Shown here one piece after another: positions 1,700 through 56,266 of a DNA stretch of 64,000 bases. Positions within the stretch are counted from its first letter, which is position 1; each line of letters begins with the position of its first letter. The position numbers and the translations under genes are program-made. The stretch comes from a virus: IMG/VR virus record IMGVR_UViG_3300049436_000052, positions 201,433 through 265,432 of that record; one strand, written 5' to 3'. Below the pieces are notes generated by a model. It was given only the letters and a program-made list of their open reading frames with translations. It had not been told where the DNA came from and did no database searches.

Positions 1700-2767
1700 A
1701 TGAAAACTTTAGAAGATTTAACGCCCGAAATTAGGGCAAAAATTCCTTTATATAAGGAAAAATGTGTAAAAGACCTCTATAGTGGTGTAGAAGCTGCTAA
1801 TTTTAACAGAGCATTTTCAACTTCATATGTTGAAAAAATATATGAGATCGCTGGTTATAAAAAACCAGTAGTAATTTATGCTGATAATCCAAATGAGTTT
1901 AAATTAAAGTTTAAACTTCTGTGTGATAAGAGAATTCAAGATCTTATTCATAAAGGATTTGAAGACAAAAACACTGAAAAAGGATTTGACGAAGAAACGA
2001 TTGATAAAGCAATTGCATCAATTGAATTGACTGATGAAACTAAAGACATAAAGGTTGATAGTCATTGGATTTTCTTATGTTCTACATACCACAGAGTATA
2101 TTTGATGTGGTACAAATTCATCCAAGATGAGTTTTGTATAGAACATAAAAATAAAGATCTGTTAAATTGGCTCTATGACCACGCCAATAACAACATTGCA
2201 AAATGTTATTTTACTGAAGAATATGTTTTGGTATTAAAAATGCCTAAACTTATTTCCAGAAACAATGTTGGTTTCCACAATGTAGATCAAGCCGCAATTC
2301 AATGGCCAGAGTATAATCTCTATTATATTAATGGTAGAAGATTAGAAGAAGATCTATTCTTAAAGGTTCTCAATAAAACATTGACTTTTGACGAATTCAT
2401 GAAATTAGAAAATGAAGATACAAAAGGTTCTATTGTATCTCTAATTATTGAAAAATTTGGTCAAGAAGAACTAATGAGATTCTTAAATGCTTATGTGGTT
2501 GACGAACATATTGTTGAACACAGATCTGGTCATAAAGATCATTTTAAGTTATGGAAAACCAAAGAAAAGTTTAACTTCCTTGCTGATGCAGATGGGAACA
2601 TGAATCAACCATATGCTTGGTTTGAAGAAACCTGTCCATCGACAGGAACTGTTTATCTTCTAAGTACCAATCCTTCATTTGAAAAAGCATTGGATTGCGC
2701 TAAATTTCATAGACCAACAAGAATACCAACAGAATTGGTTTATGATATAAAATCATTTAATAGTTAA
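1700..2767 (+). CDS. DUF6745-like phage protein
   Basis: N-terminal LEDLTPE...IPLYKEK, central FHNVDQAAIQWPEYNLYYING, C-terminal CPSTG motif; recognised by eye. Confidence 0.6.
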   Translation: MKTLEDLTPEIRAKIPLYKEKCVKDLYSGVEAANFNRAFSTSYVEKIYEIAGYKKPVVIYADNPNEFKLKFKLLCDKRIQDLIHKGFEDKNTEKGFDEETIDKAIASIELTDETKDIKVDSHWIFLCSTYHRVYLMWYKFIQDEFCIEHKNKDLLNWLYDHANNNIAKCYFTEEYVLVLKMPKLISRNNVGFHNVDQAAIQWPEYNLYYINGRRLEEDLFLKVLNKTLTFDEFMKLENEDTKGSIVSLIIEKFGQEELMRFLNAYVVDEHIVEHRSGHKDHFKLWKTKEKFNFLADADGNMNQPYAWFEETCPSTGTVYLLSTNPSFEKALDCAKFHRPTRIPTELVYDIKSFNS

Positions 2768-2890
2768 AAAATAATTGTGCTAAATGATTTGTTTGTTGAT
2801 AAATTTGTATTAATTTTGTATCGAATAGTTTTTTATTATTGAAGACTATTTAATTATATAATTTTATTTTTTAAATTTAAAAAATTAACT

Positions 2891-3271
2891 ATGCAAAAAG
2901 ATTTTAAAATTTTAGATTTCATTGGCCACCAAGGCGATGTTCAGTTCTATGCAATAGATGCTATTCCAACTGATGCAAAGAAAATTGCAAAACAATTTGT
3001 TGCTGCTTCGGAAAAAAGTGGACATGTTCATGCGTTGAATGGAAACTACGACATGTATGAACTTGAGGACGGTTTTTTATTAGATGTTAAAGAAACATCA
3101 ATATTTAACCACACTTCAAAGTCATTGTTAAATGCAGAGACTTGGGATAAAGCAACTGCATTACCTGAAGAAGATCATGGAGTTTCTGTGATTGAAAAAG
3201 GTAAATATTTTGTTGGAATTCAACAAAGATTTGACCCAATCGAAGCTGCCCGTAAAAATGTAAAAGACTAG
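2891..3271 (+). CDS. Conserved His-rich phage protein, usual partner of DUF6745-type genes
   Basis: GHQGDV...SEKSGHVH...EDH...QQRFDP motif pattern; adjacent to 1700..2767. Confidence 0.55.
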   Translation: MQKDFKILDFIGHQGDVQFYAIDAIPTDAKKIAKQFVAASEKSGHVHALNGNYDMYELEDGFLLDVKETSIFNHTSKSLLNAETWDKATALPEEDHGVSVIEKGKYFVGIQQRFDPIEAARKNVKD

Positions 3272-3543: not shown

Positions 3544-3595
3544 TTAACATTTTTTAACATAAAAACTGAAACATCTATTCATTATTTTCGTATAA
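3544..3595 (+). promoter_or_regulatory. ECF-type phage promoter TTAAC-N5-TTAAC-N9-GAAAC-N16-CGTATAA
   Basis: Exact motif upstream of ORF 3629; about 21 copies in the window, co-oriented with the downstream gene. Confidence 0.85.
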
Positions 3596-3628
3596 TATAA
3601 TAAATAAACTTAATTAAAAAGAAAAACA

Positions 3629-3821: not shown

Positions 3822-3950
3822 TGTTAACGTTGGTGGTATGGTTAGTTGGGGATTAGAAACCACAAACCTAGACACAAGTACAAACTTAATAAATTGATAT
3901 AATGATGAATAACGCAGAAAAACCCCAATTAACTATACCACATGTTAGCG
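3822..3950 (-). repeat. attC-like recombination site (array 1)
   Basis: TAAC...GTTAGCG cores flanking imperfect inverted repeat GTGGTATGGTTAGTTGGGG / CCCCAATTAACTATACCAC. Confidence 0.75.
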
Positions 3951-4339
3951 TTTCGGTTATGGATTTACGCATTGGGAATTTAGTTAAATTAAACGATAAA
4001 GACTATCACGCACTAGAAGAAGATGGTCAGTTGAACGATAAAAATAACATTTGGGCAGTGAAACGCATTGATGAAGATGGTGATATAAGTATTTACAATA
4101 AGATAGAAAATTTATTTGAATATGTAAATATTGAAGAAGTTGAAGGCATTAATCTAAATGACGAATTGTTGGATAAAATAAAAGTAACAACTAATGAATA
4201 TTTCAGCAAAGGTAATGGTGTTTATTGGTTTACTCGTCATAATCCTCATACTCCAATAGTTTATTTACACCAATTTCAAAATATATTTCACGCTCTAAAA
4301 ACATACGAATTACTAGTCGGTTCTTTAACTGAACGCTAA
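3902..4339 (+). CDS. Cassette-borne hypothetical protein (starts inside attC-like site)
   Basis: ATG lies in the hairpin loop; reads through GTT AGC; stop TAA is within the next CGCTAAC core. Confidence 0.75.
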   Translation: MMNNAEKPQLTIPHVSVSVMDLRIGNLVKLNDKDYHALEEDGQLNDKNNIWAVKRIDEDGDISIYNKIENLFEYVNIEEVEGINLNDELLDKIKVTTNEYFSKGNGVYWFTRHNPHTPIVYLHQFQNIFHALKTYELLVGSLTER

Positions 4340-4464
4340 CGGTTGCGTATAAAAAACGTTGCCATTTTGAAACACGAATGTTTAATTTAAAAATAAACTT
4401 AATATGAAATACAAAGTTCAATTAACCGATGAAGCTGGCAATGTTTTTTTATACGATGTTAGCC
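4334..4464 (-). repeat. attC-like recombination site (array 1)
   Basis: CGCTAAC...GTTAGCC cores; arms CGTATAAAAAACGTTGCCA / TGGCAATGTTTTTTTATACG with one unpaired base. Confidence 0.8.
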
Positions 4465-4667
4465 GTAGTTCTTGTTCTGAAAAAACACTTAATGACTTCA
4501 TTTTAGAAGCGTTACAAATTTCGGAGGATAAACGGGAACTTCCTGTAAAAATACAGTGTCCAAACGGATTAGAAGTAGCACCTTCAATTAAAATGAAATT
4601 TGAAAACTATGGAAGTCCGATACTTGGCGATAAGTTAGAAGCGATGCACATCACTTGGCGTGATTAG
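4404..4667 (+). CDS. Cassette-borne hypothetical protein (starts inside attC-like site)
   Basis: ATG in hairpin loop; body bounded by GTTAGCCGTAGTTCT and AGAATTACGGCTAAC. Confidence 0.75.
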   Translation: MKYKVQLTDEAGNVFLYDVSRSSCSEKTLNDFILEALQISEDKRELPVKIQCPNGLEVAPSIKMKFENYGSPILGDKLEAMHITWRD

Positions 4668-4673
4668 AATTAC

Positions 4674-4767
4674 GGCTAACGAATATATATATTTTTATGG
4701 TTATAAATATCATTAAATTAGATAATTACAACCATAAATTTTAAAGATTTGATTTAAATTTATAAAA
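4674..4767 (-). other. attI-like terminal site of array 1 / recombinase leader
   Basis: GGCTAAC core with no hairpin partner, then TATATAT and a 44-bp block (4724-4767) identical to 10626-10669. Confidence 0.65.
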
Positions 4768-4774
4768 ATACTAT

Positions 4775-5556
4775 ATGAAATTTGATGAACTACTAAAACA
4801 ATATTCCAATAAAATTGAATATTTCAAATATTCAAAAAGAACTAAAGAAATGTATATTCATTATACATCCAAATTTTTGATAAAAGTAAACAAATATCCA
4901 CAACATATAACATCTAAAGATTTTGAGGATTATTTGTTAAAATATAAATTCACTTCGATTTCTCAACAAAATCAAATAATAAATTCAATAAAATTTCTTT
5001 ATGAAAAGGTATTAAATAAAAAATATAATAAAATTGATTTTGAACGTCCAAGAACAGAAAAGCATTTACCACAAATAATTGATAATGGATTTTTGTTAAA
5101 TAAAATTAATCTAATACCAAATTTAAAACATAAAGCAATAATTTCTTTAGCATATTCTGTTGGTTTAAGAGTATCAGAAGTAATTAATCTTAAAATTGTG
5201 GATGTAGATTCAAAAAGAATGATAATCAATATTAATCAAGCAAAGGGTAAGAAAGATAGAATAGTTCCATTATCAGAACATATTTTAGATTTATTGAGAA
5301 AATATTGGAAAGAATATCATCCAAGAGAATATCTTTTTAATGGACAAAATTCATTACAATATTCTGCAACTAGTTGTAATCAAATAGTAAAAAAATATTT
5401 AGGAGATAAATATCATTTTCATTTACAACATTATTAGAATGTGGAACAGATCTAAGAATTATTCAAAAATTGGCTGGACATAATTCTTCTAAAACAACCG
5501 AAATTTATACACATGTGAGTACTAATGTTTTATCAAAAATTAAATTACCCTTATAA
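4775..5556 (+). pseudogene. Tyrosine recombinase (N-terminal SAM-like domain, XerD/IntI-related), frameshifted
   Basis: YSVGLRVSE and KGKKDR motifs; frame breaks at HFHL; alternative frame continues [34 protein letters not shown] to stop 5556; the LRH motif is missing. Confidence 0.9.
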
Positions 5557-5759
5557 TGATAGAAAAACAAAAAAATAAAAAGCAATCCGAAAACGACAAT
5601 ACTACAAATTTAAGTGTTATGTGTTGTTGTGCTAATTGCAAAAACTGGAAGCTTAAAACTAAAAAAACGGGTGTGCTTGGAGTTTGCAAATTAACAAGTT
5701 TTGATGCTTTTTTTAATGATGTTTGTGGTAGTCACATATTGAAAATTATAAAAAAATGA
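5556..5759 (+). CDS. Small Cys-rich hypothetical protein, possible degenerate cassette
   Basis: CANC...C...C; contains in-frame GTT ATG TGT like the cassette genes. Confidence 0.5.
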   Translation: MIEKQKNKKQSENDNTTNLSVMCCCANCKNWKLKTKKTGVLGVCKLTSFDAFFNDVCGSHILKIIKK

Positions 5760-6708
5760 CGAAAATTTAACTTAAAATATTTAAAAAGGAGAATAAAATG
5801 GATTATCACATTTCAAAAGACAGTAAGGGCAATGATTTGCCAAGATATAATAAAGCAGAAGCGTTGAAACTTGACGGTGCGATTGAGACAGATGCAACAT
5901 TAAAAAAGAACCTAGTAGTTGTGCTTAAAAATATTTTTGGGGAGGGTGTTGCAAAAATATTAGATGAAGATGAATTAAACTATCAGGTAAAAAATGAATT
6001 GGGAAGAAAGCAAACTTTCTTAATTTACCCACCTTTAAAAAACGAATAACATGAACGACATTGACAAAAAAATAATTGCATTAAGAAAACTAACAACTAA
6101 CTTTGTATTTATCGAATGGGATGTTCACGAATCTTCTGATTGTTATAAGATTTTTGATGAATATTCTAAAAATAAAGACAAAGTTATTCTTTGTAAAGTT
6201 GAGGATGGAATTGAAATGGCTATTGACAATGCAATAAAAGTAGTCGGAAAATGGCGAGATGAGTTTTTCGGAAAATAATTTTATATAAAATTTGTTTTAT
6301 GTCACCATATGATAAACTACTTTTTTATTTTTCGTTATTAATTGTAATTTTTTTACTATCGTTTCTCTACTATCATAACAAGAACAAACGTTTTAAAAAA
6401 ATAAAGTATCGAAAACTTATAAAAAAAGAAGAATTGAGAAATTTTTATCATCACTTAAATTTGTAATCAACTATGGAAAAATATAAATTTCACCTCAAAC
6501 CTGAAGAACTTGGACAATTGGATCATCATTTTGTAGATGATAATGACAAAAAGATTGCTACTTTGTTACGTGAACCTAATGATAAAGGATATAACGTTAT
6601 TACTTATTTTGAAAGTAATGAAAATAAACCACCGTTCGTACATACTTTAATTGAAGGATTTGTTGCAGTTAGAAAACTCTTAAAGAAAGTTGGAATTAAT
6701 GCTGATTT

Positions 6709-7380
6709 TCAATAATTGTTTAATTCTTGATTTACCACATCTTTTGCTTTATTCTCAGGTTTATAGAGATAATCTTGTTTTTCAGGTTCGTCATATTTCT
6801 CATCATCAAAAAATGGTATTTTAAATTTAACATTTTTAATAATTGAGTAAAAATCTTCTGCGGTTTCTAAATTTTCCCTATTGCTTAATATGGTATATCT
6901 TTCGTTATCCATTGGTTCGTTTGTCATTGTGTTGTACATATTCCATACAAAATAAACTTGATTCGAATCGTCAAATTTAGCTTGCTTTTCACCAAATATA
7001 TATGATTCCTGATTAAATTGTTTTGATAGTTTTGCAATATCATTTAATGTGATGTTTGGAACAACTAGTGAATTTTCAAAATTGCCATATTTCCCTTTGA
7101 TTTTAATAAAACCATAATTCAACGATCTTAAAGTAGATTTTAAATTATCCATTCTTTTGTTATTTTCTTCAGGACTTACTTTCATTGCTTGTGGATTTTC
7201 TGCGGTAAATATTCCAATCGTATTGACAGCATTAACATCGCCACTCATCATTCGTTTTAGTCGTGGATAACCTCCTTCATCAACATCTGCTTCATCAATA
7301 TTTTCATTAAGTTTTGGTTTGAAGGTTTTATCTAATCTGGCCATAACTTCAAACAATCTTTTCTTACTATCATTTATCAT
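6709..7380 (-). CDS. Conserved phage hypothetical protein (GIFTAENP motif), lone antisense gene
   Basis: 223 aa ORF opposing the + block; leader ending LNE...DE. Confidence 0.7.
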   Translation of the reverse strand: MINDSKKRLFEVMARLDKTFKPKLNENIDEADVDEGGYPRLKRMMSGDVNAVNTIGIFTAENPQAMKVSPEENNKRMDNLKSTLRSLNYGFIKIKGKYGNFENSLVVPNITLNDIAKLSKQFNQESYIFGEKQAKFDDSNQVYFVWNMYNTMTNEPMDNERYTILSNRENLETAEDFYSIIKNVKFKIPFFDDEKYDEPEKQDYLYKPENKAKDVVNQELNNY

Positions 7381-7499
7381 ATTGTAAATTTTTATATAAA
7401 TAGTTAAAAAATGTTAAATTAATTTGTTGTATCATATTTTTTTCTAACTTAGCCAAAACATTTTTTAGTTTTTTTCGTATAATATAGAAAATACGTAAT

Positions 7500-7859
7500 A
7501 TGTTAACAGTTAATCAAAATTTGGTAGATGAATTTGTTTTTTATTTAAAAGATGTGAAATTTCGAAATAAAATTCAAAACTTAAAACTTGAATATCAGTA
7601 TCCGATAACTAAATGTGATGGTTGGTTGTATTTAGCATTAATTATCATAAAAAAATCTAAAAGAAATCAGGGTATTGGTTCAGAAATAATTAAAGAAATT
7701 ATTAAATTTGCTGATACATACAATCTTGAAATTAAACTTTGGCCTAGTGATAAACATGGTAGTGATTACAATAGATTGATTAAATTCTATGAAAACTTGG
7801 GATTTTTTTTAATTGATAAATTTGAAAAAGAATATATGTCTTACAAAAAAATAATTTAA
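7500..7859 (+). CDS. GNAT-family acetyltransferase
   Basis: RNQGIGSEII acetyl-CoA motif A and LIKFYENLGF motif B. Confidence 0.85.
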   Translation: MLTVNQNLVDEFVFYLKDVKFRNKIQNLKLEYQYPITKCDGWLYLALIIIKKSKRNQGIGSEIIKEIIKFADTYNLEIKLWPSDKHGSDYNRLIKFYENLGFFLIDKFEKEYMSYKKII

Positions 7860-8442
7860 AGATTATGGAAATTATTCAAAAAATAAAACAATTAAATTCT
7901 GGAAAAGACAAACTGGAATTTATCTTAAATTCAATATATAGTGGTCATAAAAACTTAAGTGTTATTATGAACCTACATAAACATCTAAATCCTCTTAAAA
8001 ACGAAGAAATTGATGATTTTATGGAAGGATTGATAAATGATCTGCTTGGTTATTATGTTTTTGTTGAAAAAAACAAATTAGATGAGAATGAGTTTGTAAA
8101 AACAGCATTACAAGATCTTTTTGTTTATATGAAAAAAAATAAAGATTTAAAATTCAAATCAAAAAGATTTTCTAATTACTTGAAAATAATTTAATAACTA
8201 AATTAAAAAATATGAAGAATAAAATTATTTTTATAAAACGGTTTTTGTATATATATTGGAAATTTTTATTAATAGCAATCGTTTGTTTTATTTTGTTTTC
8301 AGTGTCATGTGGTTGTATAGAAGGTATAATTGCAACAATATTTATAATGGGATATTTATATGGGTTATATCGAATAAATTCATTATTTTAATAAAAAAAT
8401 AATTAAAATAATGATTGAATTATTAATAAAATTAGAGAATAA

Positions 8443-8901
8443 ATGAAAATTCCTGAAGACGATATATTTAAAGATTCAAATGAATGTCATAAAATTTGGC
8501 ATAAATTCTCGAATTGGTTGGTTAAAACTTTTGGAAAAGATCTTCATGGTGAATGGGAAATCGTTGAAATTACAAATGATGATGGTAAAATAGTAAAATT
8601 TAAAAGTAGAAGCTTTAACGAACTTGAACTTAGCCGAAGATTGGTTGGTTATGATGTAATGTGCAAAATTGAAAGATATGTAAAAAGATGTTGCCCTGAG
8701 ATTAAAATAATTGGTTGTGATGATTCTTATTATAGTAGTTCATTTATTTTATTAATTCCACATCCTAGGCATGGAATTACAATTATGTTCATTCCTCAAT
8801 GCACAACAATTCAAAATCAATTGTTTTTATATGATGGGCATTTCGATCTTTTGATGGAAGAATTGAAAAAAATGAAATATGTTTATAAAAATCAGATATA
8901 A
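8443..8901 (+). CDS. Hypothetical protein
   Basis: 152 aa ORF in co-oriented block. Confidence 0.65.
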   Translation: MKIPEDDIFKDSNECHKIWHKFSNWLVKTFGKDLHGEWEIVEITNDDGKIVKFKSRSFNELELSRRLVGYDVMCKIERYVKRCCPEIKIIGCDDSYYSSSFILLIPHPRHGITIMFIPQCTTIQNQLFLYDGHFDLLMEELKKMKYVYKNQI

Positions 8902-8910
8902 AATAAAAAT

Positions 8911-9243
8911 ATGAAAGAAATTCCAAAAATAGGACAAAGATACAACTGTTTTGACGATGGCAAAATAAGTTATAACAGATTATATACTGTTGATGTGAAA
9001 GAAGTAGTTCCTTTTGATAAAATAGATAAAACTACACTAAAGAAATGGAAGGAAGAAGTTGAAGAATGTTATTGGTTATATGCAAAAGAAACTGATTTTT
9101 TTATCAAGACAGAAAATGGTGAAGATGGTGATGCTGTTTTTGTAAGAACAATTAATGGTGGGTGGTTTAGTATAGGTAATTTTATGAATAGTGGTAGATT
9201 AGATGTGGATGGCGAATTAACTGAGATGCTTAATGTTACATAA
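8911..9243 (+). CDS. Conserved phage hypothetical protein
   Basis: 110 aa ORF with FDDGKI...SGRLDVDG. Confidence 0.7.
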   Translation: MKEIPKIGQRYNCFDDGKISYNRLYTVDVKEVVPFDKIDKTTLKKWKEEVEECYWLYAKETDFFIKTENGEDGDAVFVRTINGGWFSIGNFMNSGRLDVDGELTEMLNVT

Positions 9244-9498
9244 TAGTTATGTACATGACATTTAATATTTAAAACTTAATGGAAAAATTTAAAAGAGTAG
9301 CATTAGAAAGAAAATTACGAGCAGATTCTGATGGAATGCCAGTTTTTAGAGATTGTTTTGAACATGAAACTTTATTATCATTTTTTGATGATGGTGGTAA
9401 TTACGCATTTAATGAATGGTGGGAAAAAGAAGGTTCGAAACAGTTTAATGAGTGGGTTTTGAAAAATGATGAATATAAAATGTATGGTTCTTAATTGG

Positions 9499-9590
9499 CT
9501 ATAACGTTGGTAATATGAAAAGTTGGCTTTGTAGTCACTTCCAATTTACCACAAACGCTGATAGCTAATTTTTTATATTGCGTGTTGTGT
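9499..9590 (-). repeat. attC-like recombination site (array 2)
   Basis: CTATAAC...GTTGTGT cores; arms TAATATGAAAAGTTGGCT / AGCTAATTTTTTATATTG. Confidence 0.75.
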
Positions 9591-9624
9591 GTAGTACGGA
9601 TTATTAACGATAAATATTAGTAAA

Positions 9625-9807
9625 ATGAGAAATTATAGAATAGTAGAAGGTAAAATTGAGGTGGATGATTGGTTTGTTGCTTTTGGTGTTATTGGTAAAT
9701 GCACAGAAGTTGATAAAACATATGACCAAAATGAACCTAATTATAATAGTAAAGAAACAAAATGGACGTGTGGTAAACACTGTAAAAAAATTGAATTTAT
9801 AGACTAA
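9625..9807 (+). CDS. Cassette-borne hypothetical protein
   Basis: Bounded by GTTGTGTGTAGTAC and complementary GTATTACACACAAC. Confidence 0.7.
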   Translation: MRNYRIVEGKIEVDDWFVAFGVIGKCTEVDKTYDQNEPNYNSKETKWTCGKHCKKIEFID

Positions 9808-9818
9808 CGTAGTATTAC

Positions 9819-9948
9819 ACACAACGGTGAAGCTATGACCAGTAAAGGATTACAGAGCGATGCGCTATCAACCGATACCCAACTGGATGCGAGCTGAAAT
9901 GTTACAAGCAAGCACTGAAACCTTTATTGGTTATAGCTTATGTTAGCG
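9819..9948 (-). repeat. attC-like recombination site (array 2)
   Basis: ACACAAC...GTTAGCG cores; arms AGCTATGACCAGTAAAGG / CCTTTATTGGTTATAGCT. Confidence 0.8.
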
Positions 9949-9993
9949 TTTCGTACTTTTTAAATCGAATTATAAACTTTTAAATATTAAAAA

Positions 9994-10272
9994 ATGGAAA
10001 ATCAAAATTACTTAACCCTTAAATGGGGAACACTTAAAAGCTGGTATTTTACAAACTCAGAAAAGGGAAAAGAACTTTTAAAAGAATACCGTGAAATCGG
10101 TTCATCTTTTAGTGCTATGGCTCAAAATGATACTCCACGACAAAAGGAAATTATTTGCGAACTTATCGACTTATGTGATGGTGATACAATTTATCTCGAT
10201 TGGGATGGTGAAGATGTGTCAAAAGAGAAAGCAAAAGAATATGTGATGAACTATGGTAAAGAGCGTTCTTAG
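9994..10272 (+). CDS. Cassette-borne conserved phage hypothetical protein (LKWGTLK motif)
   Basis: Bounded by GTTAGCGTTTCGTACT and AGTATGAACGCTAAC. Confidence 0.75.
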   Translation: MENQNYLTLKWGTLKSWYFTNSEKGKELLKEYREIGSSFSAMAQNDTPRQKEIICELIDLCDGDTIYLDWDGEDVSKEKAKEYVMNYGKERS

Positions 10273-10278
10273 TATGAA

Positions 10279-10408
10279 CGCTAACGTTAAAATGTAAGGT
10301 GTCGTGGCTACCTAATAAAAGCTACATATTTGTAAATTTAGATAAATATTAATATGAAAAACGAAACTTCAAAAACCAAGCAGCCATGCACTTTACATAG
10401 TGTTATAG
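10279..10408 (-). repeat. attC-like recombination site (array 2)
   Basis: CGCTAAC...GTTATAG cores; arms ATGTAAGGTGTCGTGGCT / AGCCATGCACTTTACAT. Confidence 0.8.
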
Positions 10409-10581
10409 CCAGTTATTCAATAGAGCAAAAAGAAGACAAAGCTCTTAGCTGGTGGGGTGTTTTAACAAACAGACAAAAATCAAAATATGCTAAAAAGTAC
10501 TATAATAAGTTAAGTATTGAAATAAAAACCAGCGAAAAAATAGTTATATGGGAAAATAACGCTTGGGGTAATTGGCTATAA
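10354..10581 (+). CDS. Cassette-borne hypothetical protein (starts inside attC-like site)
   Basis: ATG in loop; GTTATAGCCAGTTA pairs with terminal TAATTGGCTATAAC, which holds the stop codon. Confidence 0.75.
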   Translation: MKNETSKTKQPCTLHSVIASYSIEQKEDKALSWWGVLTNRQKSKYAKKYYNKLSIEIKTSEKIVIWENNAWGNWL

Positions 10582-10669
10582 CTATTATATATATTTTTAT
10601 GACAGTAAGTTACTTATTTAAAATAAATTACAACCATAAATTTTAAAGATTTGATTTAAATTTATAAAA
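10576..10669 (-). other. attI-like terminal site of array 2 (no adjacent recombinase)
   Basis: CTATAAC core then TATATATATTTTTATG and a 44-bp block identical to 4724-4767. Confidence 0.65.
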
Positions 10670-11783
10670 TCATTATTTTTTAATCTTTTTTTCTTATTTT
10701 TGTAAAAAATATTTTTAATTTATGGAAATAAGAAAAAAAGCAAATGCCTACAATATAGAATATAAACAACTTTTAAATTCAATAGAACGGTTAAAAGAAG
10801 AAGTTTTTGAACGTTTAAAATTTCTATCAAAGAAATATCCAGAAACAATTCTAATAGATAATATTACTTCAGAAATTATTTTATCAACAACCGATAGAAA
10901 CAGCATTTCGTTAGAAACTCAAATAAATCTAATAAAGATATTTGAAACAATGATTGAAAATATTAATAATAAATATGTTCAAAAGCAAATTAATTTTGAG
11001 ATAAATGATAATAATTAAAATTATTTTGTTGTTGTTTACTATAAGTGAAATTATAGTTCACAATACTCCACTTTACTATAAAAGTAAAAACGAAAAAATA
11101 GTAAGATGTAATTACGAATTTGTTCAGATTAGTTTAACAAAAAACGTCATAGTAGTGTTTAATATCGTTGAAAACATAATTTGTTTATTTGATTATCAAC
11201 GCAACATAAATGGCATATCAGTCTGCATTTGCAACATAACAATTAAAATAAATAACGAATAAAAATGGGAAAGAAAAATAATAAATGTGAAGTGTGTGGT
11301 AAAAAGATAAAGTGGAAAGAAAAACTTTGCCAAGATTGTGAAAAAGATAATAAAATTTCTTTATATTTACTTTATAGATATCTTACAGATGTTGAAAAAG
11401 TTCCATCAGATTATGATTATTAGAGGTTTATTACAAAAAAATATTATTAAGTTATTTTGCATTGAAAAAGCATATCTACGTCCAAATTTTATTATTGGTT
11501 TAATTAGTTTAGATTTAGAAAATTTTCTTTATGATGAAATGTCAATAGAAACTTATTTAGATAATATTATTACAGTAGATAATATCTTTATAAAAATTAT
11601 TAAACAATAAGATGAGAAATATTTTAAATGAAAAACTGTGCGATGTATTTGAAATAAGACATCAAAATTATAGATACCCTCAATTTATCACAATTCCACC
11701 ACATAAAATAGAATTGGTGTTTTTCTTTTTCCAAATGATGAATGATTTTCGTGAAGTTCCTTTTTTGATTGAAATTTAACAAG

Positions 11784-18905: not shown

Positions 18906-18985
18906 TGTCAAAGAGAAGGACTCGAACCTTCAATCTTAGCCATGTTAAATGGTTGGCTACGCTCTACCATTGAGCTATCTTTTGA
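18906..18985 (-). tRNA. tRNA-like element with enlarged anticodon loop (pseudo-tRNA or mimic)
   Basis: D-arm GCTC-AATGGTA-GAGC, T-arm GAAGG-TTCGAGT-CCTTC, anticodon stem TAGCC/GGCTA with 13-nt loop, bulged acceptor stem. Confidence 0.75.
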
Positions 18986-36341: not shown

Positions 36342-36995
36342 TTAATAATACATTTCGTTAGTTTCAACCACATAATAAACATCATCTTTTTTATTAATTG
36401 ATGTAGTCGTTTTCTTAATGTTGTTATTAAATTTTGATTTATATTCTGCTAATATAGTTTTTAATTTGGTTTTACAAACATGTAATCTGTTATGTACGGT
36501 ATGCGATGGAATGTTCAATTCCTCAGATATTTCATTATATTTTTTGTTTTCAAAATAAAACATGTTAAAGATTATTTGATCAGTTTCTTTTAATGTTGAT
36601 ATTGCTTCAGATATTCTTTTTGACAATTCGTTTTGATCATACTCGTTTTCAATGTCTATTGATTTATCAGCAATATCATACCTTAGTTTGTTTTCGCCCT
36701 TCCATTCACTCCCATTTTCACTTTCAGGGGATAATTGTGAAAAGAATAGAGGTTTATGTTTATATGCATCAAGTCTTGAATTGTCAATTAATAAACGATA
36801 AGCAATATTATATAACCATGTTTTTATTGCTGATTTTTTAGGATCATATTTTGAAATATTTTTAAATGCTTTAGCAAATGCCATTGCAGTTATTTCCTGA
36901 GTCAAATATTCGTTTCTAAAAGTTTTAGCTAAAATTGCCGAATAGACATCTTTATAATATGTTTTATAAATTTCATCAAAAGTAATGTTTTTCAT
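36342..36995 (-). CDS. RNA polymerase sigma-70 factor, ECF subfamily
   Basis: Region 2: F.KAF...YDPKK...KTWLYNIAYRLLIDNSR; region 4: L...DQIIF.M.Y....YNEISEELNIP..TV..RLH..K..LK. Confidence 0.9.
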   Translation of the reverse strand: MKNITFDEIYKTYYKDVYSAILAKTFRNEYLTQEITAMAFAKAFKNISKYDPKKSAIKTWLYNIAYRLLIDNSRLDAYKHKPLFFSQLSPESENGSEWKGENKLRYDIADKSIDIENEYDQNELSKRISEAISTLKETDQIIFNMFYFENKKYNEISEELNIPSHTVHNRLHVCKTKLKTILAEYKSKFNNNIKKTTTSINKKDDVYYVVETNEMYY

Positions 36996-37012
36996 GAGAT
37001 ATTATTTAGGAG

Positions 37013-37078
37013 TTTAAATCAAATCTTTAAATTTTATAGTCATACTGACTAAGTATTGAGGATATATAACCGTTAAGC
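37013..37078 (+). other. attI-like terminal site of array 3, directly upstream of the ECF sigma gene
   Basis: TTTAAATCAAATCTTTAA (reverse complement of the motif at 4741 and 10643), ATATATA, then GTTAAGC core. Confidence 0.6.
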
Positions 37079-37357
37079 GCAATAAAGCAACTCATCTAAA
37101 ATGCTCTTAGGTAAATTTGGAGATTCACACGATTTTAGAAATATCCAAATTTGAACATCACCACTATCCATCATTTGATGGATTATATCAGTTACAACAT
37201 AAAATCCTTTTTTTAACTTTAAAAAATCTTGGTCATAATCTTTTTCATATCCCTTTTGCTCTTTTCGAATAGCTATAAATTGATTTTCTTTTAATAATCT
37301 TAAATCAAATGAAAACCCAATATTAAAAATTTCTTTATTATCAATAAAAACTTTCAT
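37073..37357 (-). CDS. Cassette-borne hypothetical protein
   Basis: Bounded by GTTAAGCGCAAT (37072) and AATGTGCTTAAC (ending 37378); stop codon inside core; ATG at 37357 preferred over TTG. Confidence 0.7.
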   Translation of the reverse strand: MKVFIDNKEIFNIGFSFDLRLLKENQFIAIRKEQKGYEKDYDQDFLKLKKGFYVVTDIIHQMMDSGDVQIWIFLKSCESPNLPKSILDELLYCA

Positions 37358-37371
37358 AATCAATAAAATGT

Positions 37372-37466
37372 GCTTAACGTGCAATATAAATCAGTTGCTA
37401 TTAAGCTATTTTGTAAATTTGAAGCGTATCTGTTGGCAACCGCTTCATATTGCCTTACCGTTAGCT
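37372..37466 (+). repeat. attC-like recombination site (array 3)
   Basis: GCTTAAC (RYYYAAC)...GTTAGCT; arms GCAATATAAATCAGTTGC / GCAACCGCTTCATATTGC. Confidence 0.8.
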
Positions 37467-44121: not shown

Positions 44122-44173
44122 TTAACTTTTTTTAACATAAACATTAAAACAAATTTTAATAATTGTCGTATAA
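44122..44173 (+). promoter_or_regulatory. ECF-type phage promoter (AAAAC variant)
   Basis: TTAAC-N5-TTAAC-N9-AAAAC-N16-CGTATAA. Confidence 0.7.
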
Positions 44174-44735
44174 ATAAATAAACTTAGAAATTTTAGGTTT
44201 AAATGCCTATAAAAAAATACAAGAATGGAAGATAAATTTTTTTATGTTTTTAAATCTGATCTTGGTACAAAAGAAAGTAAAATAAGAAATTTAAATAAAG
44301 AACTTTCATCTGCTTTATATTATAAATTAAGTGATTTAATACTTGGTACTATTTTTCAAAGTGTTGAAATTGCATTAACATTTGAAGAAGATGTTGTAAA
44401 TGATTTAGAATTGTGTACTTTTTAACTATAATAAATAAAATAACAATGAAAAACTGGAAGGAAGAGGCTCAAAAAATTTTGGATAAACATTTAACAACAA
44501 TGTTAAATAAATACCCAGAATCTTACAAAACATTAGAAGAAATGACAAAATTGCCTGAATATGAAATTATAATTAATGTAATGTTTGAATTTGCCAGATT
44601 GTACGCAAAAGAAGCTTTTGAAGCAGCTAGAAAATTGGTATTAAATAAAGGCAGTTTTGAAAGAAAAGACACTAATGAATGTTATATAAATATGTTTGAA
44701 ACATTTAACGATTTTTTAACTAATAATAAAATATC

Positions 44736-49500: not shown

Positions 49501-50248
49501 TTTAAATTTAAATTCCTTTATTGATTTAAATTTATTTAAACATTTAGATATTTAGATTTTAATTTTGGAAATTTAAGCAATTTTAAAATATTCTCTAATG
49601 AACTTTCTGAACTATATATTGATACAAAAATTTAGTAATTAATTCTATTTATGAAACGTTTCTTAATCGAAAATGTTTATTTAAATCAAATAGATTCTGA
49701 TTTTTATATGGATTTTGAAATGAAATTTTTATTATCTCTTTGGTCAAAAGTTCATGATGAAATAAAATTAGATATATCTAATCAACAATATGAACTTTAT
49801 CTTGAAATTGAAAAAACATACGAAAATGATTAATAACAAAACATCTTTCGAACCTAGAAAACTTGGTAATAATGAAACTGTTAATGAAATCATCCCTATA
49901 CTTAATATGTTGCTTAATCCAAATCTATATCTTGAGTTAACTGGTAATATATATGTTGAGGTTAATATAGAATTAAAAAATTGTATTGATCTTTCATTAC
50001 ATTTATCTCATTAAATTATGATGAATAGAAATAGATTGTATGTTAAGTTATATAATGGATTAAATCTTAATTTTGATGATGAAATTAATCCTAAACTTGA
50101 TAATTTATTTAACACAAATTTATATGTTGAACTAAAACGACTGTTAACTATTAATTTATATGTTGAAGTTAATAGAGAATTAAAAGACTGTATTGATCTT
50201 TCGTTACTTTTTTATGTTTATATACGAACTTTCTTCAAGGATTTATAA
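46581..50248 (+). other. Second micro-ORF cluster (about 16 ORFs, interrupted by 47109-47960)
   Basis: Contiguous 50-75 aa N/L/E/D-rich ORFs, many below the 60-aa track cutoff. Confidence 0.65.
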
Positions 50249-50275
50249 AATTTATTATTACAATTTTTTTTGTTA

Positions 50276-50328
50276 TTAACATTTATTAACTAAATGCCTG
50301 AAACAAAACAATGATATTTTTCGTAGAA
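50276..50328 (+). promoter_or_regulatory. ECF-type phage promoter
   Basis: Motif with CGTAGAA -10. Confidence 0.75.
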
Positions 50329-50874
50329 CTAATATTATAAACAACAAAAATATCTCATGGAAATTATATTTGTCAATAAAAATCCTAATTTTACAATTGT
50401 ATGTGGATTAGATGAAATTATAAACGGTATTGAAATAACTACATTTGATCTTGCAAATAATCACAAAATTCTTAATCTGTTACATTTCATCTCTATGTAT
50501 GCCGAAAATGATGGTTCTGATAAACAGAAAAAATATGCATTTGATTTCTTTTGTTATTATATTTCTGCGTTTGATAGTGATAATAGTAAAAAGAAATTTG
50601 ATATTTTAAGTAAAAACCCAAAACTTCAAATATTATGTTCTGGGGAATTGCTAGGTAATTTGAAATCAAATTTTTAAACTTAATCACATGAAAAAAAATA
50701 CATTATACTATAAAAAAGAAACTGCCCGAAAAATGATGAATTTTCATGGCAAATTGCTTGCTTGGTCATTAGTTATTGCGGTTTTTATAGTAATTATTGC
50801 AACATTAAGTTAAGAATAAAAAGCGTCTATTGAAAATCCTTTAGAATATTATTTTTTAAAGGATTTTTTTTTCA

Positions 50875-50927
50875 TTAACATTATTTAACTAAATTATTGA
50901 AACATTTTATCCGATTTAAACGTATAA
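50875..50927 (+). promoter_or_regulatory. ECF-type phage promoter preceded by terminator hairpin
   Basis: Full motif; AAAATCCTTTA...TAAAGGATTTT upstream. Confidence 0.85.
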
Positions 50928-52020
50928 GAACTATATAAACAATTAAAATAAATAAGTATCATGAAAACATATCCACAATTCCCTGAAGATTGGAAAGATG
51001 CAAAACAAACTCTTTATAGAAATTTTTATTTGAAAAGTAGTGTTGATATTGAAATTCTAAAAGATTTGGTTAAAACTCATATTTCTGATAAGGGCAATAA
51101 TGGTGTTTTACGGGCAAGATTGTTAGGCATTCTCAATTCTTATTTTAGTAGAGCTAATGAACTTTTTTGGACAAAACACTATCATCCATATACATATAAA
51201 CTTATTTTATTTTGGAAACATACTGGAGAATGGTTTGCAAGAACTTTCAATACTTGTAAATTTCGTAATAATGTAGAATTATGTAATATTGCCTCCTCTG
51301 TGGTGGATGAAATCCTTGCTGAAGAAAAAAGTAAATAATAAAATAATAAATATCATGAACCCAAATAAACAAAAATGTCCATTTAAAGATTATGAAATAA
51401 TCAACTCTGAATCTTTTAAATTAAGATATCATTGTGTGGGATATTATGGTTATAGAAAACCAGATGAAATTGCTGAATATCCACACGAAACACATGTTTT
51501 TCAAAGTCATTTTGTAATAAAAATATTCAATTATTGTTTAAACTAATTAAATAAATAAACATCATGGAAACATCAAACAATTGGAAATTTAATATAAAGA
51601 TTAAACATCTTTTTACAAGCAAAACAACGCCTGAAGTAATAATAATCATATGCACTTCTTTAATTCAACAATTAAAATCATTGATTGAAAGTATTGAAAA
51701 ATCAAACATTGTTGAAGACGATAAATATTATTTAACTTCAAATCTTGAAGAGATTAAAGATGGTTTTCAATTTCTTCAAGAACTTGCAGATGGTTCAATT
51801 CCAGAAAATGAATGGGATGATTATTGTTTTGAGGGTGATTTCGAAAGTGAATTTAATGGTAATTTAACAACACTTTATGATCTTGCTGATTGTAAAATAG
51901 AATCAAAATCTGGTGATGATACTATTCAGGAAAAATTTCTTTGGATTGATTAATTAAAATAATTAAAATACATCTATTAAAAAAATCTCTTATAACTTAA
52001 TTTGTAAGGGATTTTTTTCA

Positions 52021-52073
52021 TTAACATTCTTTAACTAAATTATTGAAACAAATTATCTGGTTTGTTCGTATAA
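52021..52073 (+). promoter_or_regulatory. ECF-type phage promoter
   Basis: Full motif, N17. Confidence 0.85.
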
Positions 52074-52103
52074 GAAGTAATATAAACAATTAAAAAATAA
52101 GTT

Positions 52104-52304
52104 ATGGAAACATTTTATTATTCGATAAAAACGGCAAATAAATCTTGGAATGAAACCAAGCAACATGAAATTGAGTTTGATTCGTGGGAAAATTTTGGAA
52201 AGTTCTGTAATGGACTGTCAAAACATTTAAAAAAAGAAATTAGGGGATGCGAAACTTCTGGCTATAATAATCAGGGATCGTATTTTTATAAATTTTGGAC
52301 ATAG
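52104..52304 (+). pseudogene. Hypothetical gene interrupted near its 3' end by the TnpB element
   Basis: Matches paralog 38585..38944 up to GSYFY; continuation NVVTLPKKKINVL resumes at 53627. Confidence 0.75.
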
Positions 52305-53626
52305 TAGTAAAGTTTTTTTGTGAATGTTTCTCAATCAAAATGTAGCTGATTTACAAAAAAACTTGCAAATTGTAAAAGATAGTGTATCTTTACAAAAAAT
52401 TAGACTATTTACCAATAGATGAAAGTAATTCACAAATCATACAAGTTTAATATTGCTCCTGATAATGAGCAAAAAGAGCTCCTTGCAAAACATTTCGGAG
52501 CTTGCAGGTTTGTGTTTAATCGTTACTTGAATAATAGGAAAGAAAATTATTTAAATGATAAAACTTCCTTAAATTATTATGACAATGCTAACGATTTAAC
52601 TAATTTAAAAAAACAAAATGAATTTAATTGGTTAAAGGAAATTAATAGTCAATCATTACAATCTTCTTTAAGAAATTTAGATACTGCATACAATAAGTTT
52701 TTTAGAAAGCAAAGTAAATTTCCAAGATTTAAATCAAAGTATGATAGACAAAGTTTTACTATACCACAATCATTAAATGTTGAAGTAGATATGTTGTTTA
52801 TACCAAAATTTAAAGAAGGTATTAAAATAAATTTACATAGAGAAATTAAAGGTAAAATCTTGTTTGGTACAATATCCAAATCTACAACAGGTAAATATTA
52901 TGTAAGTATAACTTGCGAAATAGAATACACTCCTATTGAAAAAACAAATTCAAAAGTTGGTATTGATACTGGAATTAAGGATTTGGCAATATTATCTAAT
53001 GGTAAAACATATAAAAATATTAAAACACTTAAAACCAATTTAAAGAAAATAAAATATAACCAAAGACAATTATCTAAAAAAGCAAAAGGAAGCAATTCCA
53101 GATTAAGACAAAAATCAAAACTTGCAAAAGTACATGAAAAAGTAACCAATATTAGGAAAGACTATTTGCACAAAGTCACTACAGAAATAATCAAAAACCA
53201 CGATGTGATTTGTATTGAAGATTTAGCCGTAAAAAATATGATGAAAAATCATAAATTATCACAAGCATTTTCTGATGTTGCTTTAGGTACTTTTTATACA
53301 ATGTTAGAATATAAAGCTAATTGGAATGATAAGACAGTTGTTAAGATTGACAGATATTTTCCAAGTAGCAAAACCTGTAATGTTTGTAATTACATTAACC
53401 AGGATTTAACATTAGATATTAGGGAATGGACTTGTCCAGATTGTAATACAGTACATGATAGGGATTACAATGCAAGTTTAAATATATTAAAACAAGGATT
53501 AAATATATTATCTGGTTCAGGAATTGAGTCGGATATAAAACAAAAACGTAGTGAGGCGTTGCCATTAGGTGAGTCTATGACCTACGAAACCCAACCTATT
53601 GCTATTAGCGTAGGTGAGTAGTTCAC
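52290..53626 (+). mobile_element. Non-autonomous IS200/IS605-family (IS1341-type, tnpB-only) element
   Basis: Inserted after TTTAT, ends TTCAC, no target duplication, left-end hairpin AAGTTTTTTTGTGAAT/ATTTACAAAAAAACTT. Confidence 0.85.
52419..53621 (+). CDS. tnpB: RNA-guided endonuclease TnpB
   Basis: HTH N-terminus (FGACRFVFN), RuvC GIDTG, IEDL and DRDYNAS, zinc finger CNVC/CPDC. Confidence 0.95.
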   Translation: MKVIHKSYKFNIAPDNEQKELLAKHFGACRFVFNRYLNNRKENYLNDKTSLNYYDNANDLTNLKKQNEFNWLKEINSQSLQSSLRNLDTAYNKFFRKQSKFPRFKSKYDRQSFTIPQSLNVEVDMLFIPKFKEGIKINLHREIKGKILFGTISKSTTGKYYVSITCEIEYTPIEKTNSKVGIDTGIKDLAILSNGKTYKNIKTLKTNLKKIKYNQRQLSKKAKGSNSRLRQKSKLAKVHEKVTNIRKDYLHKVTTEIIKNHDVICIEDLAVKNMMKNHKLSQAFSDVALGTFYTMLEYKANWNDKTVVKIDRYFPSSKTCNVCNYINQDLTLDIREWTCPDCNTVHDRDYNASLNILKQGLNILSGSGIESDIKQKRSEALPLGESMTYETQPIAISVGE

Positions 53627-53654
53627 AATGTGGTTACTTTGCCAAAGAAAAAAA

Positions 53655-53707
53655 TTAACGTTCTTTAACTATAATAACGAAACATTTTTAATTAATTTTA
53701 CGTATAA
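53655..53707 (+). promoter_or_regulatory. ECF-type phage promoter
   Basis: Full motif, N17. Confidence 0.85.
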
Positions 53708-53714
53708 GTATATA

Positions 53715-53907
53715 CCCACTGCCTAAAAAGTAGATAAGCGAAACTTATTAAAGATATTTTAGGATGGTATAAAGAAAGTCCAATTCTTTCCTGTGGGTCG
53801 AATGCCGTTCGAATCGGCTCGTTGATTGAGGTTAGGTAAGTGACAAGGTTTAATTCCTTGCAAATTAGTTGATACTACAAACAATCTGGCAGCTTGGAAA
53901 GACAAGC
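53715..53907 (+). ncRNA. Putative structured RNA / 5' leader
   Basis: CCCAC/GTGGG multibranch domain, two T-arm-like hairpins, GCTTG-GAAAGA-CAAGC hairpin; starts right after promoter. Confidence 0.6.
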
Positions 53908-54516
53908 AAATTTTTTAAAATAAATTTAATTAACATTATAATGGAATTATTCACAGAAATTGAATTTAAAGTGTCAGAATTTGATAAAATTGATAAGGTT
54001 TTATATTTTTTGACCAATGAAGGTTGGGAAATTATAAATACCAGAGAATTTTCAATTATAAGACCAAACAAACCAAAAGAAATAACAGCAAAAAAATATA
54101 AATTTAGACGCACAATCTAATAATTTTTAGTTACAAAATCATTTTTAAAAAATGCATTATGGAAAATATAAACGTGAATAAAGAAGCTATTCTTAAGCGT
54201 ATTCAAAGACATGAAGAAAATATTAAAACATATATGTTAAAATTAAAAGAAAGTGAAACCGTTCTTGATAGTGAATATTACATTAAATATATTAGGGAAT
54301 TAGAATTAAGAAAAAATGAATTAGGTTTAGTTTTATCAACTTGTTTTGAATAAATTTAATTACCTAAAAACTGACCAAAAAGCTTGTTTTTATGCCGCTA
54401 ATCCTAAGAACGATATTTATTTATGGATTGCACCGAGAAATGTCTTAGATGTCGTTAAAATTGATAATTCAGATGTTCTTTCATAATTGATTGTTTATTG
54501 TTTATAATTGTTTTAA

Positions 54517-54548
54517 AATCCCTGAGATTAAATTTAGTTTCAGGGATT
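54517..54548 (+). terminator. Terminator hairpin, identical 32-bp copy at 57604-57635
   Basis: AATCCCTGAGATTAAATTTAGTTTCAGGGATT twice. Confidence 0.8.
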
Positions 54549-54642
54549 TTTTTTGTTCCACATAAAACATTATGTTAATATTTATTAAAAATTGTTTACT
54601 TTAACATTTATTTTTTAATTTTGCAAAAATAACATAGCTTAT

Positions 54643-55658
54643 ATGTTCGAAAATAGTTTTGATAGTGTGATTAATGATAATCTTAATTGTTCAGATATAG
54701 GTTTTCCGTTTGATTGTAATACTTTTCCATATAATAAACTTTTAAATTTATTATATGATGATATGGATGTAGAATTGAGTCAGCTAAATTTTAATATACT
54801 TATTCATTGTAGTTCTTTTTCTGATTAATTAATAAGATAATATGACAAATTTTGACAATAAACTACACCAATCAATAACATTTCCATATTTTGATTATAA
54901 TATCTTGCTTAATGATCAACTTATTCATTTCTTGTCTAACAATCTTTATATTGAGTTAAATGATTTAAATAATAACATATCTACTATTTTAATATGAAAT
55001 TACCTAATCCAGAATTTAATGAAGATCTTTTTAATAAATTATTTAGGATTTTCAACAATAAATTATTTGAAAATATACGAAATGAATATTTTCAAATCGT
55101 TGAAAGCAAATCAAATATTGAAATACAAACTGAAGTTAGATTTTCATTAGTGAAAGAATTTAAAATTGATCTACTAAACGAAATTTCTAAACTATTGTAA
55201 TTAATTGGTATATTCTTATGAAAATAGATTTTTATAACACAACTCAAGATGATTTTTATAACATAATTCAAGATAATTTGGATGATAATTTTCGTTTAAG
55301 ATTATTGTATGATATTACTGCATTATATTGTCCAAGCATTGGAGGTAACAAATTATCAAAGCCATTACACCGTGAACTTATAAATACATTTGATTTTATT
55401 AGACTTGAAATATCATTTAATAGGTTATTTGATGTTAGTTTTTAATAATAAAATAATATATAAATGAAATCTATTGAAATAATACTTTATGATAAATTAA
55501 ATGGTTTTGATAAAAATTTATGTAATGATCTTATTAATGGTTATGTTTTATCAATTAAAGGTGAATTAAGTAGTGAATTACACAATGAATTTTATTTTGA
55601 AACTAAACAACTTCTATTTTTTGAAACATTATCCCTTTTGAACTTACCAGGAAAATAA
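54643..55658 (+). other. Third micro-ORF cluster (5 ORFs)
   Basis: After TAATTTTG promoter at 54616; same size and composition as other clusters. Confidence 0.65.
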
Positions 55659-55667
55659 TAAATCCTT

Positions 55668-55720
55668 TTAACATTATTTAACTATGTTAAGGAAACATTT
55701 TAAAACGTTTAATCGTATAA
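55668..55720 (+). promoter_or_regulatory. ECF-type phage promoter
   Basis: Full motif. Confidence 0.85.
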
Positions 55721-56213
55721 GAACTATATAAACAATCTAAAACAATAACATTATGAAAGCAAAATCAAAAAAAATTAAATTTTGGAATCTTCCGAAAGAA
55801 ATAAAATTAATTAAATTTCTATTTGATGGTGAAAAAGATAATAAATATTTAGATATTGTGGAATCTTTTTCATGGTCAGCAAAAAAAGAAAAAAAGTATT
55901 ATAAAATCACCAATCAAATTGATGAACTTGAAGTTTTAGGTAATGGCTGGAGAATTTATTGTTGGTATGACATTAGTGGATATGATTATTGGGTAAAACA
56001 ACAAGAAGAACCTAATTACATTGAGGTTACAATAAGTTTCGATAAAAAGTCAATTTTAAAAAGCGAAATCGGAAATATTGAAAATGCCTTAAACGATATT
56101 CTTAATAAATGCAGAGAAATTGAAAATAAATATTTTAGGTAAAAATAATGTTAAGATAGGTAATTCTTTAAATAATGTCCCTTGTATAATAACCATATAA
56201 GGGATTTTTTTAT

Positions 56214-56266
56214 TTAACATTTTTTAACTATTTGTTCGAAACAAAACAATGAGTTTTTACATATAA
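56214..56266 (+). promoter_or_regulatory. ECF-type phage promoter (CATATAA variant)
   Basis: Motif with one -10 mismatch. Confidence 0.7.

Follow-up and report, generated by a model that had tools for sequence, protein, structure and literature searches.

Integron-like cassette arrays, with putative recombination-site hairpins ahead of their genes, in a huge phage of a Bacteroidota-type host

Results

Hairpin sites and cassette arrays of the window

The stretch of DNA analysed here (the window, 64,000 nucleotides [nt] of the IMG/VR virus record IMGVR_UViG_3300049436_000052) covers positions 201433-265432 of a single contig of 334,326 bp, which has a G+C content of 25%. Two short arrays of integron-like gene cassettes are located between 3.8 and 10.7 kb of the window, and a third array has left a remnant on the minus strand at around 37 kb. 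Among the genes of the window are those for a Dda-like helicase, a tRNA nucleotidyltransferase, a TnpB-type protein and a large conserved phage protein, the last with its nearest relatives in uncultured huge phages and Cellulophaga phages. This gene content, together with the closest relatives of the large phage protein, indicates that the source is a huge phage of a Bacteroidota-type host.

The arrays contain small open reading frames (ORFs) on the same strand, separated by four long imperfect hairpins, and a degenerate fifth site begins at 9503. The four hairpins and their cores are:

Hairpin A: AAC 3826-3828, GTT 3944-3946, plus strand, arms 3833-3854 and 3920-3941
Hairpin B: AAC 4338-4340, GTT 4458-4460, plus strand
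Hairpin C: AAC 9823, GTT 9942-9944, plus strand
Hairpin D: AAC 10283-10285, GTT 10402-10404, plus strand

All four hairpins are genuine. For B and C, folding is far better than that of shuffled sequences (z = -3.8 and -3.4, respectively); A and D are weaker over the whole segment (z = -0.6 and -1.3), yet their arms are 19-22 bp long. A strict hairpin scan found site B alone, and a relaxed scan with DNA energy parameters was then used. The units and associated elements are listed below, with a slash in the core at the proposed crossover point:

3828-4339, plus strand: cassette 1, with the C of the left core, hairpin A and ORF 3902-4339, ending with the TAA of CGCTAA/C (4337-4339)
4340-4679, plus strand: cassette 2, with hairpin B, ORF 4404-4667 opening in the loop, TAG at -13 and the 3' extension TAGAATTACGGCTAA/C
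4680-4774, plus strand: terminal attI-like element 1, beginning directly after AA/C, 5' of the recombinase pseudogene
4775-5556, plus strand: Xer-like tyrosine recombinase pseudogene, frame open to 5437 and remnant to the stop at 5554-5556
9503-9824, plus strand: degenerate or compound unit, with left core GGCTATAAC (9497-9505), hairpin C0, ORF 9625-9807 and the 3' extension GTAGTATTACACACAA/C
9825-10284, plus strand: cassette C, with hairpin C, ORF 9994-10272, TAG at -13 and then CGCTAA/C
10285-10581, plus strand: cassette D, with hairpin D and ORF 10354-10581 opening in the loop, ending with the TAA (10579-10581) of GGCTATAA/C
10582-10680, plus strand: terminal attI-like element 2, with no recombinase gene behind it
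36996-37384, minus strand: end of the third array, with ORF 37073-37384 (likely ATG at 37357), its stop being the TAA (37075-37073) of GCGCTTAA/C, and then terminal element 3
36996-37072, minus strand: terminal attI-like element 3, directly upstream of a sigma-factor gene

In the compound unit, the right core of the short hairpin C0 is mutated (CTG for GTT), and a second right core, GTTGTGTGTAGTAC, is found 25 nt further on, at 9586. The outer stem of C0 is paired with the 3' flank of the ORF that precedes it, and GTTGTGTGTAGTAC pairs with the flank preceding hairpin C. This compound site (9497-9620) may be the scar of a partial cassette deletion.

Three ORFs begin in hairpin loops, translate the right arm and read the GTT core as Val, as the initial annotation of this DNA had described: ORF 3902 in hairpin A (...TIPH/VSVSV, the slash preceding the GTT-encoded residue), ORF 4404 in hairpin B (...FLYD/VSRSS) and ORF 10354 in hairpin D (...TLHS/VIASY). 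Direct reading also bore out its observation that a TAAC core provides the TAA stop codon of three ORFs, those with ends at 4339, 10581 and 37073. ORF 9994-10272, which starts 52 nt past the GTT of hairpin C, is a counter-example to the loop start within the window. The same annotation had listed ORFs 5556 (LSVMC) and 37741 (FAVIPS) as cases of the same signature without a hairpin. These are chance occurrences, which lack both a hairpin and a complementary sequence at the 3' end of their unit; an in-frame GTT followed by A is present in codons 11-35 of 22% of all ORFs of at least 60 amino acids in the genome.

Recombinase and related loci

A deletion and a frameshift removed the box II HxLRHSFAT region from the recombinase pseudogene and left the C-terminal remnant in another frame; where intact relatives have KYHFHTLRHSFATH, the window reads KYHFHLQHY followed by a stop. 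Relatives of this recombinase were found in 54 viral contigs, and in most of them strong hairpins cluster upstream of the gene. The intact relatives, at loci L116 and L117, are 266-268 amino acids long and scored 155-156 against the IntI model TIGR02249, whose cut-off is 265. Their alignment to VchIntIA (2A3V) skips chain residues 218-265, that is, the IntI insert of ~48 residues is absent. The best Xer model was XerA_Arch (188-197 bits, cut-off 220), XerC and XerD gave 140-154 against cut-offs of 330-335, and the closest solved structure is that of P. abyssi XerA (4A8E).

Locus L116 belongs to a related huge phage (IMGVR_UViG_3300035208_004239, 327 kb) that carries an array and an intact recombinase gene at the equivalent position. 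Its flanking genes are homologous to window 2321-3238, and its cassettes are wholly different. In the window, the region between the recombinase pseudogene and the second array (5556-9494) is occupied by twelve small ORFs with no hairpins, one of which encodes a DUF3293 protein (6709-7380, minus strand). The recombinase stop and the start of ORF 5556 overlap as TAATG, and this start is conserved in the DNA of several relatives.

Mobile unit, crossover point and attI-like element

In the related loci, 118 sites were collected upstream of recombinase genes, with the consensus T-N6-TAACG ... T-GTTA. The bases that follow GTT are the reverse complement of those that precede the next AAC, as in GTTAGCGTT with AACGCTAAC, GTTAGCCGTAGTTC with GAATTACGGCTAAC and GTTATAGCCAGTTA with TAATTGGCTATAAC. 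Over 111 closed units, the 10 nt after GTT matched the flank of the next AAC at 5.64 of 10 positions, compared with 3.43 for the flank of their own AAC and 3.01 for a random flank. This complementarity marks the unit ends as circularly permuted, as in integron cassettes.

Two sets of junctions bear on the crossover point. In ~30 independent phage contigs, the variable 3' flank of the last cassette and its AAC directly adjoin a conserved TAYTATATRTA sequence, which is 45-55 nt ahead of the recombinase ATG; there is no intervening hairpin. The cassette of ORF 4404 was found in 10 contexts (the window and loci L177, L178, L185, L193, L195 and L197-L200), where homology runs from (T)AAC/G, the slash here marking the edge of homology, or from the left end of the hairpin, up to the end of GGCTAAC. 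Both the upstream flank and the downstream hairpin were different in all 10 contexts, and the cassette always kept its own upstream hairpin. Given the attI-like junctions at AAC and the boundaries of the ORF-4404 unit, the crossover appears to take place at the left AA/C and not at GTT, which would be the pairing partner of the core. The hairpin therefore belongs to the ORF downstream of it, and the mobile unit, as read from the sequence, consists of C, hairpin, GTT, ORF and ...TAA, from the C of one ..TAA/C core to the AA of the next. Each unit opens with an imperfect hairpin of 70-230 nt and the GTT core, continues with 10-14 nt complementary to the 3' end of the same unit, and then has the ORF and a 3' extension whose last bases are TAA. 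The stop codon of TAA/C sits at the crossover and moves with the cassette.

The classical layout, with the crossover at G/TT and the site behind its gene, was the initial assumption and was rejected on the evidence of the AAC-attI junctions and the ORF-4404 contexts. The initial annotation had proposed that each cassette carries its translation start in its own site; the sites are indeed integron-like and the start lies within its own unit, but the reason is a crossover at AA/C and not at GTT. The version that places the crossover at GTT, assigns the hairpin to the cassette upstream and has leaders swapped there into in-frame fusions is contradicted by the same observations, since all array-attI junctions fall at AAC with no hairpin after it, and since the upstream hairpin of the ORF-4404 gene is constant and the downstream one changes. 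The leaders that speak in its favour are considered below.

The conserved AAC plus TAYTATATRTA element is a candidate for the attI function. On the opposite strand the platform looks classical, with a recombinase gene pointing away, attI and then the array, although the cassette genes are on the opposite strand to those of classical cassettes. The terminal elements at window 4680-4774 and 10582-10680, and at genome 185361-185450, contain an extra stem-loop of ~40 nt (TTTATGGTTGTAA...TTACAACCATAAA) that is missing from most relatives; the distance from AAC to the recombinase ATG is 97 nt here, compared with 45-55 nt in relatives.

An all-against-all nucleotide comparison of the arrays gave mostly hairpin-to-hairpin similarity and three longer matches, from which units could not be defined; they were defined instead from protein homologues and a 16-mer at the cassette end. 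A scan of viral contigs with the 14-mer ATGTTAGCGTTTCG gave 114 matches, about the chance level, and was not used.

Strand asymmetry of the sites

The plus (coding) strand folds better than its complement in 106 of the 118 sites. Pairs with G in the 5' arm and T in the 3' arm numbered 180, against 27 of reverse polarity, and these become A.C mismatches on the other strand. Bulge counts over 109 sites revealed no consistent side and no consistent extrahelical base. The G.T asymmetry could mark the recombined strand, as extrahelical bases do in classical attC sites.

The asymmetry also favours the transcribed strand, as would be expected if the hairpins were RNA or regulatory elements (terminators, or elements for processing or stability) and the modules were shuffled by homologous recombination between repeats, as proposed for the T4-type promoter-stem-loop cassettes. 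The hairpins do form a sequence family able to support homologous exchange, and the local recombinase is dead. Such an origin is nonetheless very improbable in our view, given the base-exact boundaries at AAC in the 10 contexts and the ~30 attI-like junctions, the circularly permuted unit ends, and the tight linkage of the arrays to one recombinase family in 54 viral loci.

Gene starts, GTT frame and stops

Taking as the gene of each of the 111 closed cassettes its longest same-strand ORF, the start was inside the hairpin in 35 (32%), 33 of which have hairpins of at least 121 nt, and after GTT in 68 (61%), mostly 3-55 nt downstream; eight had a minus-strand ORF or none. Among the 35 hairpin-start cassettes, 12 lack any further in-frame ATG, and in 9 others the next such ATG is at a distance of at least 33 codons. 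About half of the long hairpins open a loop ORF of ~70 amino acids or more, the first genes of two-gene cassettes included. In the 75 long hairpins, ATG-opened frames through GTT were distributed 33/20/15 by frame on the plus strand, compared with 10/6/3 on the minus strand. The loop ATGs have an A-rich context, like ordinary starts in these phages.

A fixed GTT frame, as initially claimed, was not found; what exists is a bias, 24:7:4 in the 35 hairpin-start cassettes, or ~17:6:4 when related hairpins were collapsed by eye (p about 0.004 against a uniform distribution). Many hairpins are related and keep the GTT frame open even where the gene starts later, and the bias may for this reason reflect common descent.

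The positions of the stop codons show two peaks, one at -13 (21 cassettes) and one at -1, where the stop is the TAA in TAA/C (12 cassettes), and both positions are in one frame.

Evidence for individual loop starts

The loop start of ORF 4404 is well supported by sequence comparison. Its 369 homologues (77-99% identity) are full length, with M1, D9, G12, Y17 and S23 invariant, and substitutions among the loop-encoded residues are conservative. The recombination site contains codons 1-22. The hairpin B family exists in three arm versions, in which the coding right arm covaries with the non-coding left arm, residues 14-16 being VFL, IRQ or VQQ, and all three versions retain one G.T pair and one bulged T in the 3' arm. 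The N-terminus is also retained in copies that lost the left arm and the hairpin (L172, L184 and L186-L191). It is the full-length conservation, the arm covariation and the persistence of the N-terminus without a hairpin that support this start. An AlphaFold2 model of the family, with a mean predicted local distance difference test (pLDDT) score of 42, was uninformative on whether the leader joins the fold. In other phages (L172, L175-L182), members of this family of 87-90 amino acids are very often beside DNA methyltransferase genes (N6_N4_Mtase, DNA_methylase, Dam).

For ORF 10354 a loop start is plausible only. It has no alternative in-frame ATG, and hairpin D and its leader are homologous to site E of the genome (184908-185030), which precedes an unrelated MazG-like ORF. 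The common leader reads M(K/E)NE(T/L)SKT(K/E)QPCT(L/I)H(S/N)V, and the similarity stops exactly at GTTA. Examples of leader peptides predicted from loop ATGs are MKYKVQLTDEAGN and MEYKVQITDEAGN.

This shared leader, ending exactly at GTTA before unrelated proteins, speaks for a crossover at GTT, and four 'NLNISD/V' hairpins likewise precede bodies that differ in their first residues, with GTT in frame in all of them; the frame bias points in the same direction. Leader swapping at GTT, as proposed in the initial annotation, thus keeps an indirect indication in the D/E leader, but no GTT junction was seen. It is normal in cassette pools for unrelated genes to carry similar hairpins; the Vibrio repeats are an example from classical integrons. 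The left-core flanks of D and E differ as well, and the pair does not single out GTT. Homology was also predicted to begin abruptly at the V-S junction, and that of ORF 4404 instead passes it and extends to the loop ATG. Together with the AAC junctions described above, these observations make GTT an improbable crossover point.

The loop start of ORF 3902 is doubtful, judged from its homologues. Those outside a hairpin context, P0004 (L171) and P0005, start 3-4 residues before a conserved E(L/I)R(I/V)GN motif, at about the position of the alternative in-frame ATG 3959, five codons past GTT. P0003 (L169) has a long unrelated N-terminal extension instead, and P0002 shares the body and has a different short leader; leaders thus vary among homologues.

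The agreement of ATG 3959 with non-cassette N-termini fits a further explanation, according to which the ATGs in the loops are for the most part fortuitous or give rise to short upstream ORFs, true starts lie past GTT, and the leaders are not in the mature proteins. The majority of starts past GTT agrees with it, as do an in-frame ATG 12 codons past GTT in the MazG-like ORF after site E and the differences between the D and E leaders, which are mostly non-synonymous. In addition, the loop ORFs of 16 long hairpins read across GTT and terminate ahead of the main ATG or at it, about 10 of them being short ORFs that end 10-33 nt past GTT and 4-19 nt before that ATG. As a general account it seems unlikely to us, since the N-terminus of the ORF-4404 family is conserved with conservative substitutions even in hairpin-less copies, in 21 of the 35 hairpin-start cassettes the 33 codons past GTT contain no in-frame ATG, and loop ATGs share the A-rich context of ordinary starts.

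Discussion

Proposed organisation of the cassettes

We consider it rather likely that the window arrays are integron-like phage cassettes with the hairpin 5' of the gene, a crossover at AA/C and, in some of them, a start codon in the loop and a stop within the unit. In the long class of hairpins (about 120-135 nt), the A-rich loop would act as a translation-initiation region. The start codon would be in the loop in about a third to half of the long-hairpin cassettes, with the right arm, GTT (usually Val) and the extension being translated. In-frame stops at -13 and -1 (TAA/C) would end translation within the unit, and with these two stops each cassette would be a self-contained reading frame whatever its neighbours. 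The coding (plus) strand would also be the strand that folds for recombination.

Several points weigh against this organisation. The local recombinase is dead and recombination is inferred from the sequence; the exact cut within AAC cannot be read from it; and the distal array ends and the compound site (9503-9600) are left unexplained by the model. The G.T asymmetry would fit an RNA hairpin in the mRNA equally well. Regarding the starts, most genes of the larger set begin after GTT, ATG 3959 of ORF 3902 fits the N-termini of non-cassette homologues, and no homologues of ORF 10354 were found. The minus-strand control of the 75 long hairpins was not composition-matched, the plus strand being A-rich, and the case for translation from the loop ATGs is built on conservation and the logic of the ORFs.

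More tentatively, the hairpin might be a portable translation-start module, formed by an A-rich loop, a start codon and a leader in phase with GTT, and genes might become cassettes by in-frame joining at GTT; we see this as a possibility with limited probability. If true, it would explain the presence of one leader on unrelated proteins (D/E and 'NLNISD/V'), and would give the unsolved question of how integron cassettes originate a recognisable mark in the sequence.

Other features of the window

An Rfam scan of the window matched a tRNA only and no attC-type family. A tRNA-Gly gene (anticodon ACC) is at 18907-18985 on the minus strand, and the TnpB/IS605 OrfB-type gene is at 52419-53621 on the plus strand. 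The gene behind terminal element 3 (36342-36995, minus strand) encodes an ECF-like sigma factor with Pfam Sigma70 regions 2 and 4. A repeated motif of ~60-100 nt, TTAAC-N6-TTAAC...GAAACA-N16-17-CGTATAA, was found upstream of many plus-strand genes (families D1-D3 and D5), with repeats at 3544-3604, 44122-44182 and 50246-63856; its spacing resembles an ECF-type -35/-10 pair.

Comparison with known systems

An integron-like cassette system is common in Bacteroidota-type phages, and our literature searches found no description of such a system in these phages. New here are the base-exact definition of the unit, the coding overlap with covariation, and the frequencies in a larger set. Canonical IntI and attC clusters in phage genomes were reported by Qi et al. 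2023 (PMC9892861), and are similar to the present system in being phage-borne attC-type sites with cassette clusters; a term search of that paper for Bacteroidota phages, Xer-like enzymes and jumbo phages found none of them.

Coding within an att site has its closest precedent in ORF-11, ORF-17 and ORF-18 in attI1 of class 1 integrons, where a frame inside the recombination site crosses the crossover point, the stop can come from the GTTRRRY core, and cassettes without their own initiation region are served (PMC8876359). Those ORFs encode short peptides and act by translational coupling on the first cassette only, whereas in the phage arrays every cassette has such a site of its own, which can specify the N-terminus of the cargo protein itself. 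Short ORFs that terminate just ahead of the main ATG do occur in a minority of the phage hairpins.

Variable N-terminal fusions are also present in aac(6')-Ib cassettes and in 'fused cassettes', with the N-terminus derived from the site or from neighbouring sequence. They are context-dependent accidents at a cassette junction, unlike the leader here, which is within the unit and travels along with it. The dif modules of Acinetobacter plasmids are Xer-dependent small gene modules bounded by 28-bp duplex sites; they resemble the phage cassettes as small gene modules moved by Xer-type recombinases, and differ in having no long hairpin, circularly permuted unit ends or attI-like platform. Membership among the T4-type promoter-stem-loop cassettes is argued against by the exact AAC boundaries.

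In classical integrons, the site is seen as a non-coding tail behind the gene, with expression from a promoter of the platform. Here this polarity is reversed, with the site ahead of the gene and a loop in which the start codon and the first 15-22 codons can be located. One DNA stretch is then under both pairing and protein constraints, and compensatory changes in the arms make residues 14-16 of a conserved protein hypervariable. Self-contained frames with their own start and stop would suit long read-through phage transcripts. The arrangement provides a concrete rule for gene callers and integron finders in this cassette system, and a tractable case for how cassettes are born.

The likenesses to classical integrons include imperfect hairpins bounded by ..AAC and GTT.. 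cores, a crossover in a conserved triplet, circularly permuted single-gene units, site families common to unrelated genes, and an array that abuts an attI-like site beside a tyrosine recombinase gene pointing away. In contrast, the recombinase here has 266-268 amino acids, no IntI insert and scores below the IntI cut-off; the genes are on the folding strand, with the site 5' of the gene and the ORFs directed toward attI and the recombinase; the strand asymmetry consists mainly of G.T pairs and not of consistent extrahelical bases; and the system is phage-borne. It works like an integron, but departs from one in two defining features, the IntI insert and the position of the site 3' of the gene.

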